From: Promethearchaeum syntrophicum | GTDB lineage: Archaea; Asgardarchaeota; Lokiarchaeia; Sigyniarchaeales; Promethearchaeaceae | Assembly (NCBI RefSeq): GCF_008000775.2 | Contig: NZ_CP042905.2 | Span: 1,350,001-1,382,000 of the forward strand | Reading direction: 5' to 3' | DNA length: 32,000 bases | Shown: one piece after another, positions 21,433 through 27,571 of the stretch | Layout of the letters: each line of letters starts with the position of its first letter | How positions within the stretch are numbered: the first letter of the stretch is position 1 | Notes under the pieces: generated by a model | Seen by the model: only the letters and a program-made list of their open reading frames with translations | Databases searched by the model: none | What the model was told of the DNA's origin: nothing | Translations under genes and position numbers: made by a program

Positions 21433-22083
<651 letters not shown>

Positions 22084-22826: not shown

Positions 22827-23378
22827 CTAAATCTCATTATTTTCGATTTTAAGCGCATTTTCATAACATCGTTTGGCTATTTCCATAAACATTTCTTCAA
22901 CGTTTAAACCTTCTTTTGCAGAGGTTTCTATATGAAATGCATCCAACCTTTCCGCTAAATCCTCTGCGTCTTCATAGGATACTCGCCTTTGGTCTTCAAG
23001 ATCTTTTTTGTTCCCAATAATTATCAATGGAATCGTGCCTGTTGCTTTCTTCAAAGAACTAATCCAACCTGGAAGTCGCAATAATGATTCGGGTTTTGTA
23101 ATGTCATAAACTCCTATTGCACCTTGGCTCCCTTTGAAATAAATGTTTCGCATACTGCTAAATTGTGCCTGCCCCCCAATATCCCAAAGCAATAACCTAA
23201 GTAGAACACCTTCCATTTCTATATCTTTTATAAGGAAATTTGTTCCTATTGTTTGTTTTAGATCTGTAGAGAAAGTTTTTTTAATGAATCTCAAAATAAG
23301 ACTGGTTTTTCCGACATTTTGGGAGCCGAAAAGGGGAATTTTGAATTTATACTGTTTTTTATTACTTTGATTACTAAT
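22827..23378 (-). CDS. Rab/Ras-like small GTPase; 5' end extended beyond the track ORF to include the P-loop
   Basis: The track ORF (22827..23294) has G2 TIGTNF, G3 WDIGGQ, G4 GNKKDL and G5 ETSAK but lacks G1. My translation upstream in the same frame gives ISNQSNKKQYKFKIPLFGSQNVGKTSLI, where G1 is GSQNVGKT. The frame is open back to the TAG at 23399-23397. There is no ATG/GTG/TTG upstream of the P-loop, so I propose a start at ATT 23378. Confidence 0.85.
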   Translation of the reverse strand: MSNQSNKKQYKFKIPLFGSQNVGKTSLILRFIKKTFSTDLKQTIGTNFLIKDIEMEGVLLRLLLWDIGGQAQFSSMRNIYFKGSQGAIGVYDITKPESLLRLPGWISSLKKATGTIPLIIIGNKKDLEDQRRVSYEDAEDLAERLDAFHIETSAKEGLNVEEMFMEIAKRCYENALKIENNEI

Positions 23379-23384
23379 TGAGAT

Positions 23385-23390
23385 CTCCTC
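23385..23390 (-). promoter_or_regulatory. Shine-Dalgarno-like GAGGAG, 6 nt upstream of the candidate ATT start of the GTPase
   Basis: The minus strand reads GAGGAG ATCTCA ATT. An identical GAGGAG plus 6 nt spacer precedes the ATG of the gelsolin-like gene (26572-26567, then ATG at 26560). Confidence 0.35.
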
Positions 23391-23521
23391 GAGAAGCTAT
23401 TAAAAAATTTAGTCTGAATATACTTTCATTTTTAGTATTATTAATGCTTCTAGTTTGGATAATCACTTTTAATAAAAAATAAATGATTATAAGAGATGCG
23501 GGAGACACATTATTCTTGATA

Positions 23522-23935
23522 ATGAATACTGACGGGAAAAAAAAAAAGGAGTTTTTAGGTCTAATTTTGTTAAATTTAAGTGGAATTTTATGCATAATAT
23601 CCGAGTTTATTCTTTGGACAAATGAGTTTAGTATATTTAACTTATTTCAGCTAGAAATAGCAAATAGTATTATTTATTTAATCCCGTTAGTTGGAGGTTT
23701 TGGAATACTCCTGAGCGCTTTAAATATTGCTATATTCAAACGAAAATCATATAAATTTTGGTATATCTTGTTGGTAATTATTTTAAATTTACTATTTTAC
23801 TTTTTGCTTGAAGTTTTCTCAAATCAAGGGGCATATCTTTGGAGATATATGGGAATCTATACAACAATTTCTGCATTACTATGTCTTCTTTTTGGAATTT
23901 TATTCCAAATTAATGCAAGAGCTGAAAATCCTTAG
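23522..23935 (+). CDS. small four-helix membrane protein, unknown function
   Basis: The protein has hydrophobic helices throughout. The start is uncertain: ATG 23522 is followed by an A11 tract at 23537-23547, while the track start at 23483 adds unlikely residues. Confidence 0.5.
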   Translation: MNTDGKKKKEFLGLILLNLSGILCIISEFILWTNEFSIFNLFQLEIANSIIYLIPLVGGFGILLSALNIAIFKRKSYKFWYILLVIILNLLFYFLLEVFSNQGAYLWRYMGIYTTISALLCLLFGILFQINARAENP

Positions 23936-23966: not shown

Positions 23967-24896
23967 ATGATGGAAAATAAAGAAAATAAAAAATCCAATT
24001 TAAATTCAAATAATATAAAGAAAGAGGATAAAGATATACCACTAGATATTACTGAAGATCAATTCTATGTTGCTTTAGGTCATGAAATAAGAAGAAAAAT
24101 ATTAAAAATTATTGGTGATAATGGTATTTCAAGCTTTTCCACTTTTAAAAAACAAATCCAATCCAGTACAGGAACTATATATCATCATTTAGAAGTAATG
24201 AAAGAATTAATTATTCAAGATAAGAAAAAAAAATATCATCTAACTAATTTAGGAGAGCATGCTTATCAGATTTTAAGTAATAATATTGAATCTATTGAAA
24301 TTGTGGCCAAACAAGATGAAAAAACTGAGTTTAACAAAGAAAATAGGTTATATGATTATTTTTTACTTAAAAAGTTATTTGATTATTTCTCAAGTAATAC
24401 GAATAAAACCTTTTTAATTTCATTCGGGATTTTACTATTAATTGGTGTGTTAAGCGGAATAAATAACTTGCAAATATTTTTATTCTTTATTCGACAAGCC
24501 CAAGTTGGAGAACCATTATATTATTATTTTATTATGGATGCAATTACGATTTTTATCAGCTATTTTATTCTTATAACCACAACGGAGATTTTGAGTTATT
24601 TTATCTTTAACAACCATAATAACTGGAAAAAATTTCTCAATATCCTTTCAATTCCGTATATACCAATTCTTATTTACCTCGGAATTTATGCAATTTCAAA
24701 TTTGGTCTTCCCTACAATTAATCCTTTGTTCTTTGATATTTTATTGCTCCTTTTCCAGGTTTGGTCAATGATTTTATTAGCAAAAGCTATTTCAATTGTA
24801 AAACTTGTTAAATTTGAAAGAGGGTTATTATTGGCAATTTTAATTGATTATGGAACCTTTATGATTATGTTAATTATGAACAATCCATATCGATAA
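23967..24896 (+). CDS. ArsR-type winged-helix protein fused to a C-terminal polytopic membrane domain
   Basis: ALGHEIRRKILKIIGDNGISSFSTFKKQIQSSTGTIYHHLEVMKELIIQD...YHLTNLG is a typical ArsR/SmtB wHTH. Residues from about 150 to 309 form about five hydrophobic helices. Confidence 0.7.
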   Translation: MMENKENKKSNLNSNNIKKEDKDIPLDITEDQFYVALGHEIRRKILKIIGDNGISSFSTFKKQIQSSTGTIYHHLEVMKELIIQDKKKKYHLTNLGEHAYQILSNNIESIEIVAKQDEKTEFNKENRLYDYFLLKKLFDYFSSNTNKTFLISFGILLLIGVLSGINNLQIFLFFIRQAQVGEPLYYYFIMDAITIFISYFILITTTEILSYFIFNNHNNWKKFLNILSIPYIPILIYLGIYAISNLVFPTINPLFFDILLLLFQVWSMILLAKAISIVKLVKFERGLLLAILIDYGTFMIMLIMNNPYR

Positions 24897-24934: not shown

Positions 24935-25810
24935 TCAAGTTAAACTGATATGGACTATCTTTATTTCTTCTACATTATTAATTTCTTCTAATTTAGCTTT
25001 AGTTTCTGAAAAATCCGTTTTATCTAAGGGATTAAAATAGCCTTCGTAGATACACTGTCCTTTTTGTTGGCAAATTCCTGAAGTATAAAGAAATGGGAGC
25101 CCCATCTCTTGGAAAACTACACTGATCCTTTTTAATGTGTCTGGAGAAAGAGAACCATTAAAAATAACTGATATTTTTAAAACTTGCTTTTTTTCATAAG
25201 GCATAATATCGATTTTAAAATTTTCTTTTCGTTTTTGAAAGACTATAAAGAAATTTTTTCGTTTTTCAAGAAATACTTCTAAATCCCTTAGAATATTCTG
25301 TGGTAAGGCTAGTGATTTTTTTCGCCTCAAATCTTTAAATGGTAAAATTATTCCGTGGGTTTGGGCTTGAGTTATTTCAAAAAACTCTGAAAGTTCAAGA
25401 ATATTATTTGTAAGAAAATCGAATTCCTCATTAATTTCTGCTTCATAATTCAAAGGAGGATTGTTGATATATAACGCTTTATAAATCATTTTTCTTTCTT
25501 TTATAATTTGGATAAATTTTTTGAATTCAGTTTCATAGGCTGATAAATTTGGAGACTCTTCTTCAATAATCTTTGTTATCATTGCCATTTCTTGTTTTCC
25601 TCTTGCCCAAGCCGAGGGAAGCATAAAAAAATAATTGGCCGTATTTAATTCATTAGAAAATGCGTGTGTAAAGAAACCTGGTGTCGCGGCATCCATCAAT
25701 CGTTTAATTTGAGCTATATCATCTTCCGATATTATATCCTCAATATGTTGTGGGACACTATACAAAATGTCGGGACCTATTATTGGATTAAAATAAATAA
25801 ATAAGAGCAT
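24935..25810 (-). CDS. hypothetical protein: N-terminal longin-like (FLCN/DENN-type) domain plus C-terminal ACT-like domain (inferred)
   Basis: The beta-beta-alpha-beta-beta-beta-alpha pattern is read from the sequence: LLFIYF / DILYSV / EDDIAQIKRLMDA / GFFTHAF / ANYFFMLPS / EMAMITKII. The segment FFMLPSAWARGKQEMAMI resembles the F-x-F-x-D-S-x-ARG motif of folliculin/DENN longin domains. The C-terminus has a beta-alpha-beta-beta-alpha-beta pattern. The start is taken at ATG 25810; the track uses TTG 25822. The CDS is likely real, but the domain calls are tentative. Confidence 0.45.
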   Translation of the reverse strand: MLLFIYFNPIIGPDILYSVPQHIEDIISEDDIAQIKRLMDAATPGFFTHAFSNELNTANYFFMLPSAWARGKQEMAMITKIIEEESPNLSAYETEFKKFIQIIKERKMIYKALYINNPPLNYEAEINEEFDFLTNNILELSEFFEITQAQTHGIILPFKDLRRKKSLALPQNILRDLEVFLEKRKNFFIVFQKRKENFKIDIMPYEKKQVLKISVIFNGSLSPDTLKRISVVFQEMGLPFLYTSGICQQKGQCIYEGYFNPLDKTDFSETKAKLEEINNVEEIKIVHISLT

Positions 25811-25858
25811 TTTCTGAACCAAGCAATGATATTATGATAATAATTTGTTTTTTTTTCT

Positions 25859-26560
25859 TTAAATGTTTGTTATCTTTTTTTTGGAATTCAAGAATAATGT
25901 CGGAATCAATATTAAACTCGCCATTCCAAGGATTATAATTGATCCCTGAAAATTCCATTTCCATATAATATGATATATTAAAAGAATTATAGACATATTT
26001 GTACATATTATATTCAGTACAGATTTTGAGAGTAAATATAATATTTCTAGAGAAATCAATAAAATCAGTGAAATTATATTTAGGATCAGATTAATCTGCA
26101 TGAATCTGGAATAGTCTGAATCAAAAAGAAATAATTCATTTAACTGAGCTGAAATACTAAATTCGTTAAAATTTAATGTGATAGATAAGCGAATCACGGC
26201 GAATAACAATAATAAAAATATGAATAGAGCTAAGATTTTTTGCAGTAAATCTAATTTCGCAATTTTGTTATATTCAGCTAATTCCTCCTTCTCAGATTTG
26301 TTAATGATTGAGGTTAGCATCTCTTTTATATGATCAGGGCTCTCGTTCTTTATTAAATGCACTTTATAAAATGGATATTCTGCTTTTTTTCTTGATAAAG
26401 CTTCTTTTGCCATCATTGAGATTTTAGGTGAAATATATTTACCTTCCCAAACATACATTATCTTTTCATCTTTATCAATCAACAAGCCCATATCTTTTTC
26501 AGTCAAATTCTCTGCTTCAATCCATATTGCATTAACAAATTTAAAGATAATCATTACCAT
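25859..26560 (-). CDS. membrane-anchored protein with an N-terminal gelsolin-repeat-like domain (inferred)
   Basis: AIWIEAENLTEKDMGLLIDKDEKIMYVWEGKYISPKISMMAKEALSRKKAEYPFYKVHLIKNESPDHIKEML follows the gelsolin-repeat pattern (w-x-ie ... D-x-y-l-l-D ... k-I-y-v-W-x-G-k ... e ... A ... v ... E-x-x-P). Four hydrophobic helices follow. ATG 26560 is preceded by GAGGAG. Confidence 0.45.
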   Translation of the reverse strand: MVMIIFKFVNAIWIEAENLTEKDMGLLIDKDEKIMYVWEGKYISPKISMMAKEALSRKKAEYPFYKVHLIKNESPDHIKEMLTSIINKSEKEELAEYNKIAKLDLLQKILALFIFLLLLFAVIRLSITLNFNEFSISAQLNELFLFDSDYSRFMQINLILNIISLILLISLEILYLLSKSVLNIICTNMSIILLIYHIIWKWNFQGSIIILGMASLILIPTLFLNSKKKITNI

Positions 26561-26658
26561 TCTCAACTCCTCAACTACTTCTTTTCAATAACAAAACCAA
26601 AACTTATTAATTATTTATCCAATTTCCATTATATAATTATCGCATTATATGATTCACC

Positions 26659-26910
26659 ATGAAATTCCGATTAGTTTTTGAAACAACAACAAAAAATGGG
26701 AAAAAAGTACTTTTAAAATTTAAAGTACCCCCATCAAAGCACCTTGGGCTAATAAATTTTCTCAAAATTGCTATGGAGCACGGAGAAGAAGTCAATTTTG
26801 CTGTTGAAAAAATATCTGAAGATAAAAAGGAATTTAGCAAAATCAAAGGTAAATTTTTATTAACAGATGAAGAAGTAAAATCAGAAACTGAAGAAATTAA
26901 AAAGAAATAA
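26659..26910 (+). CDS. small charged hypothetical protein (83 aa)
   Basis: The ORF has an ATG start, lies 16 nt upstream of the same-strand CDP-alcohol phosphatidyltransferase gene, and has a Lys/Glu-rich C-terminus. I recognise no family. Confidence 0.4.
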   Translation: MKFRLVFETTTKNGKKVLLKFKVPPSKHLGLINFLKIAMEHGEEVNFAVEKISEDKKEFSKIKGKFLLTDEEVKSETEEIKKK

Positions 26911-26926: not shown

Positions 26927-27571
26927 ATGACTTCAAAATTTAGACTTAGACCAATATTTGCACCCTTAATTAAATTTTTAGCGAAAGGTTTTGTTAAATT
27001 AAGAATAACTCCTAATATTGCGACTCTTATTATGTTATTTTTCTCGATTATCAGCTCTTTATCATTAATTCTTCTAAATAATCTGCTTCTTTTCGGAGTT
27101 TTTATTTTTATTACAGGAATAATGGATGGAATAGATGGTGCTATTGCGAGATTATCCAATAAAAATTCAAAATTTGGAGCGTTCTTTGATTCTTCTATGG
27201 ACCGATTATCAGAAGGAATAATTTTTTTAGCAATTGTGTGGAAATCTTCTGAATTATTTAATAATATTCCGAAATTGGCAATATTTTTTACCTGGTTCTG
27301 TTTAGTCTTTTCTTTTTTAATTAGTTATGTTAGAGTAAAAACGGAGGTAGTAGTTTCTAGTGAAGAAAATAAATTTGATTCAAATATTGGATTATTTGCT
27401 CGCTCTGAACGTTTATTTTATTTGGTTATTTTAAGTATCCTTAGTTATTTCTTAGGAACTAGTGAATTGGTATTTTTTTCATGGGGAATAATGGTATTTT
27501 CAATTTTGATTTTCGGAACCTTCTTGTATAGATTTGATAAATATCGCAAATTTCTAATAAAGAAAAAATAA
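26927..27571 (+). CDS. CDP-alcohol phosphatidyltransferase (archaetidylinositol-phosphate / archaetidylserine synthase class)
   Basis: The full signature D-G-x2-A-R-x8-G-x3-D-x3-D is present in MDGIDGAIARLSNKNSKFGAFFDSSMDRL. The protein has about six TM helices and is 214 aa long. Confidence 0.9.
   Translation: MTSKFRLRPIFAPLIKFLAKGFVKLRITPNIATLIMLFFSIISSLSLILLNNLLLFGVFIFITGIMDGIDGAIARLSNKNSKFGAFFDSSMDRLSEGIIFLAIVWKSSELFNNIPKLAIFFTWFCLVFSFLISYVRVKTEVVVSSEENKFDSNIGLFARSERLFYLVILSILSYFLGTSELVFFSWGIMVFSILIFGTFLYRFDKYRKFLIKKK

Follow-up and report, generated by a model that had tools for sequence, protein, structure and literature searches.

A GAP-type longin domain fused to an ACT-like module in Promethearchaeum syntrophicum, a candidate arginine-finger regulator of small GTPases

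In Asgard archaea, small GTPases number in the dozens, as do longin and roadblock proteins. To our knowledge, there is no demonstrated pair of a GTPase-activating protein (GAP) and its GTPase among Asgard proteins, and no biochemistry on Asgard longins of the GAP type. A "GP motif" together with an arginine finger is the signature of FLCN, NPRL2, and SMCR8; longins that are not GAPs lack it, whereas one class of longins in Asgard archaea has it (PMC12290439). A prokaryotic precedent is MglB, a GAP of the roadblock/longin superfamily for the Ras-like MglA (PMC10933270), which differs from the proteins above in its roadblock topology and in supplying no arginine finger. In strain MK-D1, GTPase genes generally lie outside operons with longin or roadblock genes, and the pairings are hard to predict (Tran et al., PMC10933270). 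Here we describe a gene for a protein of 291 amino acids (aa) in a window of 32,000 nucleotides of Promethearchaeum syntrophicum (contig NZ_CP042905.2, positions 1,350,001 to 1,382,000; G+C about 30%). The protein combines a longin domain of the FLCN/NPRL2 kind with an ACT-like module, and we give a probability of roughly 0.55 to its regulating a small GTPase by an arginine finger, probably as a GAP, under the control of a signal. Its features are the following:

24935..25810, (-): longin + ACT-like gene, 291 aa (ATG at 25810, stop codon 24935-24937; open reading frame (ORF) list)
25373..25810, (-): N-terminal longin domain (N-domain), residues 1-146, assigned with high confidence to the FLCN/NPRL2 GAP type (AlphaFold2 (AF2) model and Foldseek)
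25772..25777, (-): G12-P13 (GP motif), within the loop that precedes strand 2 (translation, alignments)
25598..25609, (-): W68-A69-R70-G71 in the β4-β5 loop, with R70 as candidate arginine finger (translation, alignments)
25196..25369, (-): conserved middle segment, residues 148-205 (QTHG...LxLP-helix-hairpin...IP), with which the C-half module begins; its AbrB/SpoVT-like pattern is unproven
24938..25195, (-): ACT/NikR_C-like domain, residues 206-291 (model, Foldseek)
25037..25072, (-): C247-QQKGQ-C253-IYEGY258, a Cys pair on the β2-β3 hairpin (translation, alignment)

The N-domain was modelled alone from a diverse alignment, with a predicted local distance difference test (pLDDT) score of 96.7 and a predicted template-modelling (pTM) score of 0.90. 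Its elements run in the order β-β-α-β-β-β-α-α-α, which is the longin topology. An earlier note, made from the sequence alone, had proposed a longin order for this region from short segments, and each segment coincided with an element of the model: LLFIYF with strand 2-8, DILYSV with strand 12-19, EDDIAQIKRLMDA with helix 29-41, GFFTHAF with strand 45-50, ANYFFML with strand 56-65, and EMAMITKII with strand 73-82. The proposed longin order β-β-α-β-β-β-α-α was confirmed; the last strand is followed by three helices (about 89-105, 109-114, and about 123-144 or 123-145).

Foldseek comparison of the N-domain with the PDB gave only chains of GATOR1/SEAC and folliculin GAP complexes in ranks 1-11 (E 4.6e-5 to 2e-2, query-normalised template-modelling (TM) score 0.44-0.60), and no other family matched better. 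These chains were human NPRL2 in GATOR1 (9o5d_D, 9v0j_A, 9o5a_H, 7t3b_B, and 7t3a_B), yeast Npr2 (8adl_S and 9h4q_T), folliculin (6nzd_H, 6ulg_L, and probably also 8dhb_J), and 6ulg_N, another chain of the FLCN-FNIP2 complex that is probably FNIP2. Chain identities were established by searching the human NPRL2 and FLCN sequences against the PDB, where they were 100% identical to 6ces_N and 6ulg_L; 8adl_S is Npr2. PAS/LOV, DENND10, AP-2, and DENND1A ranked after the GAP-complex chains at E≥0.02, the last three at E≥0.04. SMCR8/C9orf72 were absent from the top 50 matches, and MglB was not among the structural matches.

The longin had also been called DENN-type. That label was rejected, as no DENN module follows the longin: residues 148-291 form the ACT-like module, and no DENN family of Pfam was matched. 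The longin is of the FLCN/NPRL2/SMCR8 GAP type. A search with the family hidden Markov model revealed no second longin gene in the window.

The alignment of 44 N-domains, 25-40% identical to the query, had G12 and R70 as its only invariant columns; F7, P13, F46, F47, N59, S66, G71, and E74 were nearly invariant. In a set of 141 N-domains, retrieved with a profile that itself contains the motifs, position 70 was R in 139, position 12 was G in 140, and position 13 was P in 135. The AF2 model places R70 within loop 66-72, between strands 56-65 and 73-82. A folliculin segment quoted in the earlier note, FFIKDSLARGFQRWYSII, is truly present in human folliculin, and the query segment matched to it holds the invariant R70.

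Profile comparison with hhalign aligned the GP region locally with human NPRL2 residues 10-33 (G20-P21 region) over 24 columns at E 2e-4. With a profile of 16 NPRL2 sequences, which is shallow and metazoan only, the same 24-column GP region was recovered alone (E 1.3e-3). R70 was placed on FLCN R164 in an alignment that was not significant (E 0.13) and, in global mode, on NPRL2 R78, also without significance. The N-domain profile searched against PDB sequences found NPRL2 on the GP region alone and not significantly (E 1.3). Among the 44 diverse N-domains scanned against Pfam at E≤10, none of the NPR2, Folliculin, or longin families recurred. A word-index search with the N-domain profile returned few matches, its sole gain being phylum names. 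It is thus the fold and the motifs, not significant sequence homology, that place the N-domain in the GAP-type class of longins (FLCN/NPRL2/SMCR8), an assignment of which we are highly confident.

NPRL2 and yeast Npr2, the catalytic subunit of GATOR1/SEACIT and the GAP for RagA/Gtr1, are the best structural matches of the N-domain. They share with it the GP motif before strand 2, with local similarity (FSEFHPTLGPKITYQVPE vs. IYFNPIIGPDILYSVPQ), and the β4-β5 arginine (R78 vs. R70), and an archaeal sister clade described below is paired with a Rag-like GTPase. Unlike NPRL2, the archaeal protein has no Pfam NPR2 match and no NPRL2 C-terminal domain, its C-terminal module being ACT-like; no NPRL3 or DEPDC5 partner was seen, and the neighbouring GTPase is Rab/Ras-like, not Rag-like. 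With FLCN/SMCR8 it shares a longin with the arginine motif (FLCN FFIKDSLARGFQR vs. FFMLPSAWARGKQE, R164 corresponding to R70), and FLCN chains are among the top structural matches; it differs in the absence of a DENN module and of any FNIP- or C9orf72-type gene nearby.

Asgard longins described as "NPRL2-like" or "Folliculin/SMCR8-type" share the domain class and both motifs (GP and arginine), and they too are often fused to GTPases and to sensor or two-component domains (Liu et al., 10.1101/2020.10.19.343400; PMC12290439). The 291-aa protein belongs to this population; because the longin class and its motifs have already been described in Asgard archaea, the N-domain adds one more member to an established kind. 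The Cys-bearing ACT-like fusion and the gene block around it (gelsolin, Yip1, Rab-like) go unmentioned in both papers, and the Liu et al. preprint mentions neither an ACT domain nor AbrB. The family of the C-terminal half, its fusion to a GAP-type longin, and the block of gelsolin, longin-ACT, Yip1, and Rab-like genes thus appear not to have been described.

The domain partners of related longins were counted in 80 relatives of at least 190 aa that have the N-domain and lack the C-half. An Arf domain was carried by 30 of the 80 and a Ras domain by 23, the two Pfam matches overlapping on the same G domains, and several relatives fused to Arf-like GTPases also matched Pfam SRPRB. PAS was present in 17, and a histidine-kinase ATPase (HATPase) in seven; others had V4R, CBS, GAF, TIR, or TPR. 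A P-loop followed the N-domain in 27 relatives, all of which kept the arginine (27/27), with the catalytic Gln of DxxGQ present in 15 of the 27. This fusion pattern indicates that the N-domain is a GTPase-associated module, repeatedly combined with small-molecule sensor domains. The 291-aa protein follows the same fusion logic with a different sensor, and its own link to a GTPase would rest on these fusions together with the gene neighbourhood.

The C-terminal half, residues 148-291, is a separate and independent module. At least 18 of the matches listed were stand-alone proteins of 99-169 aa (about 145 aa) that cover exactly these residues; they come from Promethearchaeota and Kariarchaeaceae, and all are annotated as hypothetical. 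The independence of the module also follows from the conserved middle segment (148-205) and an invariant Cys pair, both of which the earlier note had missed. Its proposal that the last 80 residues or so are ACT-like was borne out at the level of the fold: strands 209-218, 240-247, 252-259, and 280-289 and helices 223-235 and 268-275 follow the order β-α-β-β-α-β in the AF2 model (pLDDT 75-93 for residues 210-290). The last 85 residues or so matched NikR_C, IlvN, the PGDH/Ser33 ACT domain, and the Rel ACT domain, at target-normalised TM 0.65-0.81 and a root-mean-square deviation (rmsd) of 2-2.5 Å, with E values for the ACT-like superfamily of 3e-5 to 1.5e-3 (Foldseek). The query had no Pfam match to ACT or NikR_C, and the C-half profile found nothing among PDB sequences; of 29 C-half members searched against Pfam, one matched NikR_C (9e-4) and one ACT_AHAS_ss (0.065).

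In fused and stand-alone members alike, P204, G245, C247, and C253 were invariant, and E256 and Y258 nearly so. The motif of the ACT-like domain is therefore G-x-C-x5-C, the two cysteines flanking the turn of the β2-β3 hairpin. The conserved candidate ligand residues would lie on the same hairpin on which NikR holds H87, H89, and C95, a correspondence drawn from secondary structure and not backed by sequence alignment. The nickel ligands of NikR are H76', H87, H89, and C95 in E. coli numbering. The archaeal domain differs from NikR in having no significant sequence similarity to it, in lacking the ligand histidines, with Cys-x5-Cys in their place, and in being preceded by a segment that is not a ribbon-helix-helix.

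The middle segment has conserved positions at T151, G153, P170, F188, V190, and P204, and pLDDT values of 39-59 in the monomer model. Its pattern, G-h-h-h... followed by h-x-LP, a helix, and a hairpin that ends in IP, resembles the swapped hairpin of AbrB/SpoVT. When the C-half profile was compared with Bacillus subtilis AbrB (hhalign), the expected register was obtained (LALPQNILRDL vs. VVIPIELRRTL; E 0.08, probability <1%), and no Pfam match of the middle segment or the C-half supported AbrB. An AbrB-like identity of residues 148-205 is an unproven lead at the level of a sequence pattern. Swapped-hairpin domains of the AbrB/SpoVT type are obligate dimers; if the segment were one of them, its low confidence in a monomer model would be explained.

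Two stand-alone C-half proteins were viewed in their neighbourhoods, and no recurring partner gene was found around them. One (P0113, L006) lies near a glutaredoxin/pyridine-nucleotide-disulfide oxidoreductase gene, and the other (P0125, L007) adjoins a CbiA/ParA-type ATPase gene. These anecdotal neighbours are compatible with a redox or metal role of the Cys-pair module.

By analogy with FLCN, NPRL2, and SMCR8, the longin domain (1-146) would dock on a Ras-superfamily GTPase at its nucleotide pocket. R70, like FLCN R164 and NPRL2 R78, would be inserted from the β4-β5 loop with the G12-P13 loop in support, and GTP hydrolysis would be stimulated. The C-half (148-291) probably dimerises the protein and would so create a platform of paired longins, for which eukaryotic complexes use two subunits. 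Through its Cys-x5-Cys hairpin the C-half is probably also a sensor (metal, Fe-S, or redox), whose signal would gate the longin domain. The most likely substrate in this genome would be the Rab-like GTPase encoded at 22827-23378, an orthologue of which accompanies the gene throughout Lokiarchaeia. The parts of this scheme differ in strength. Folds, motifs, domain fusions, and linkage of the genes have been shown; GAP activity, the substrate's identity, dimerisation, and the kind of signal are inferred from them. That the protein regulates a GTPase is probable; by analogy, it may well do so as a GAP rather than as an exchange factor or platform. The neighbouring GTPase is a tentative candidate for the substrate, and metal or redox sensing by the Cys pair is a somewhat more doubtful suggestion.

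The genes next to the longin-ACT gene are the following:

25859..26566, (-): gelsolin/villin-type domain (about 95 aa) with a hydrophobic C-terminal tail; upstream and co-directional, with a 48-nt gap to the longin-ACT gene
23967..24896, (+): ArsR-type winged helix (wHTH) with a Yip1-family membrane domain; convergent (Pfam DUF7347/HTH, weak Yip1)
23483..23935, (+): conserved 150-aa membrane protein (no Pfam family)
22827..23378, (-): Rab/Ras-like small GTPase, candidate substrate (Pfam Ras 1.1e-46), 1.56 kb downstream of the longin-ACT gene

A gelsolin-domain gene was directly upstream of the longin-ACT gene and co-directional with it in all 13 Loki-clade locus records that have upstream sequence. 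The profile of its orthologues matched villin (2.7e-11) and the 94-aa gelsolin-like chain 7c2f_B (2.4e-5). The tail of the protein contains, by eye in the translation, about four hydrophobic predicted membrane helices, and the product looks like a membrane-anchored single-domain gelsolin. This tail occurs only in the Promethearchaeum loci and L004; the Candidatus (Ca.) Lokiarchaeum ossiferum protein has just 92 aa. An 83-aa protein without a family (26659-26910, (+)) is the divergent neighbour of the gelsolin gene in all Loki-clade loci, and on its other side it is flanked by a CDP-alcohol phosphatidyltransferase gene (26927-27571).

The wHTH-Yip1 gene lies between the longin-ACT gene and the GTPase gene in most Loki-clade loci. 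Eukaryotic Yip1 proteins are membrane proteins that interact with Rab GTPases. The protein of the window scored 14 bits against Pfam Yip1, its orthologue in L021 passed the cut-off with 38.3 bits, and two other orthologues were below threshold. Orthologues of the 150-aa membrane protein adjoin the HTH-Yip1 gene in nine other loci.

In this first clade, every Loki-clade locus had an orthologous GTPase gene (phmmer E 1e-85 to 1e-114) downstream of the longin-ACT gene and in the same orientation. The linkage holds down to 50% identity of the longin-ACT protein, and the genes outside the block differ: beyond the GTPase lie a ribulose-phosphate epimerase gene in this window, an NTP-transferase gene in L004, and a MaoC dehydratase gene in L005. 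Ca. L. ossiferum lacks the two convergent genes, and its gelsolin-like, longin-ACT, and GTPase genes follow one another in a single direction, separated by 176 and 142 bp. A distant two-domain member, P0036, has a related GTPase gene 2.5 kb upstream on the same strand. In a second, independent clade that shares the two-domain architecture, P0044 (Hodarchaeota) and P0046 (Promethearchaeota) are each encoded head-to-head with a GTPase of 402/403 aa that matches Arf/Gtr1_RagA, with about 250 bp between the genes (L010/L011 and L024/L025). This Rag-like GTPase has, by eye, an N-terminal extension and a roadblock-like C-terminus. A gene for a large TrmB-domain protein lies downstream in the clade-2 loci.

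The linkage of two clades to two types of GTPase is hard to explain by residual synteny alone, in what is a small sample; a scan of the genome collection had yielded only eight close loci. The longin-ACT family is thus an exception that offers a pairing: one orthologous Rab-like GTPase throughout Lokiarchaeia, adjacent in the cultured Ca. L. ossiferum, and a Rag-like GTPase in the sister clade. Whether longin-type GAP catalysis arose before eukaryotes can therefore be tested directly on two small soluble proteins, and the Cys-bearing ACT-like module and the gelsolin and Yip1-like neighbours suggest what such a switch might sense and control.

The ORF of the GTPase has no ATG, GTG, or TTG upstream of the P-loop, and its first canonical start, a TTG at 23294, would delete the P-loop. 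Upstream lies a GAGGAG that resembles a Shine-Dalgarno sequence, 6 nt ahead of an ATT, the probable start, at 23376-23378 (element 23376-23390, (-)), and GAGG(A/C)GAT-NNN-ATT was present in eight of 10 orthologous GTPase loci, including that of Ca. L. ossiferum. The pattern points to AUU as a conserved initiation codon and to possible control of translation.

The Loki block could be read as one module in which a gelsolin protein (membrane-anchored here), an arginine-finger longin with a metal- or redox-sensing ACT-like domain, the wHTH-Yip1 protein, and the AUU-started Rab-like GTPase act together, the longin GAP answering a redox or metal signal by turning the GTPase off at the membrane in a way coupled to actin remodelling. 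We regard this reading as unlikely in its entirety; if true, the block would represent an archaeal forerunner of the eukaryotic link between small GTPases, membranes, and cytoskeleton, and of nutrient sensing of the FLCN/GATOR1 type.

Several points weigh against a GAP directed at the neighbouring GTPase. Most longin and roadblock regulators are exchange factors or platforms and not GAPs, and it is unusual for a GAP domain to be joined in cis to a GTPase, the arrangement of many relatives. The motif counts were obtained from sequences retrieved with the motifs in the profile; hhalign significance against NPRL2 is local only, over 24 columns at 18-46% probability; and neither the query nor its 44 relatives match Pfam NPR2 or Folliculin. 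The full-length model has a pTM of 0.52, with low confidence at residues 147-200, and the hhalign comparisons with AbrB (E 0.08) and NikR (0.37 and 0.59) are not significant. The GTPase gene lies 10 kb from the longin-ACT gene in Ca. Harpocratesius, and no GTPase gene was found within 6 kb of that for P0034. In the window the two genes are not co-transcribed, because two convergent genes lie between them, and some of the linkage may simply reflect synteny inside one class. The longin could instead be a GTPase-binding platform, either an exchange factor (as DENN, Mon1-Ccz1, and TRAPP) or an effector or co-regulator (as the SRX longin, with which SR-alpha binds the Arf-like SR-beta); R70 would then serve structure or binding. 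The many relatives fused in cis to Arf-like GTPases, several of them matching SRPRB, resemble a built-in platform more than a GAP acting in trans. The nearly invariant G71 and E74 that follow R70 are not shared by eukaryotic GAP longins, and a structural role is possible. We nevertheless consider a platform improbable: the closest structures are longins of GAP complexes, ahead of DENND10, DENND1A, and AP-2, and the two invariant positions, G12 and R70, coincide with the two GAP-specific motifs (PMC12290439).

Two other explanations start from the C-half. Full-length NikR chains were the top Foldseek matches of the whole model, over about 150 aligned columns, which would fit a ligand-responsive transcription factor of the NikR type, with an AbrB/SpoVT-like DNA-binding hairpin, an ACT-like metal or ligand domain, and the longin as an accessory for input or interaction. 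The single Pfam NikR_C match in the family, the existence of the C-half as stand-alone proteins, the (h)LP-helix-hairpin-(h)P pattern at residues 166-205 with its expected register against AbrB, and the i/i+6 spacing of the Cys pair across the β2-β3 hairpin, which equals that of NikR H89/C95 if the secondary structures are mapped on each other, all point the same way. However, those full-length alignments have an rmsd of 11-15 Å, the region is modelled at low confidence, the sequence comparisons with AbrB and NikR given above are not significant, no consistent target operon lies near the stand-alone members, and the invariant GP and Arg motifs of the longin would be left unexplained. Of the explanations weighed here we find this one the least likely. 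The earlier note had favoured a nutrient sensor like FLCN/GATOR1-Rag, in which an amino acid or a similar metabolite would be the ligand of the ACT-like domain. ACT domains usually bind their ligand at the β1-α1 loop, where F217-x-G219 provides a conserved glycine, and among the structural matches are IlvN, which binds valine, and the ACT domains of PGDH, which bind serine. The Rag-like partner of the sister clade and the proposal that NPRL2-like longins are linked to starvation signalling in Asgard archaea (Liu et al., 10.1101/2020.10.19.343400) fit as well. Against it, no ACT family of Pfam was matched, no metabolic genes are consistently linked, and conservation of G219 does not extend to the wider C-half family, whereas the Cys pair, which lies on another surface, is invariant; this contrast favours metal or redox over an amino acid as the signal. 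There is no specific support for the sensing of amino acids, and such a sensor seems quite unlikely. We thus retain the signal-gated arginine-finger regulator as our preferred reading.

The gene itself is real and under selection, and no chance ORF, as shown by 27 full-length homologues (48-91% identity, 291-305 aa; word-index search) and 429 proteins at E≤1e-3 in an exhaustive profile search of the whole library. An in-frame TTG at 25822 lies upstream of the ATG, and every homologue begins MLL(F/L)IYFNP; the ATG at 25810 is therefore the start, and the coordinates in the earlier note were right. The nearest genomes are Promethearchaeum metagenome-assembled genomes (about 92%), and the homologues include Ca. 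Lokiarchaeum ossiferum (72%) and Ca. Harpocratesius (62%). Pfam domains are absent from all of them, and the named ones are each a "hypothetical protein" of Promethearchaeota or Lokiarchaeia. Single-sequence and profile searches with the whole protein gave nothing significant in Pfam, NCBIfam, or PDB sequences. The C-half and its stand-alone relatives had weak, consistent, full-length matches to NCBIfam PRK08577, a "hypothetical protein" family for which a literature search returned no papers.

Elsewhere in the window, a translin-family ORF (21433-22083, (-); Pfam Translin 8e-10) has GTG as its listed start and a run of ten asparagines at its beginning (MNNNNNNNNNNYELEE).

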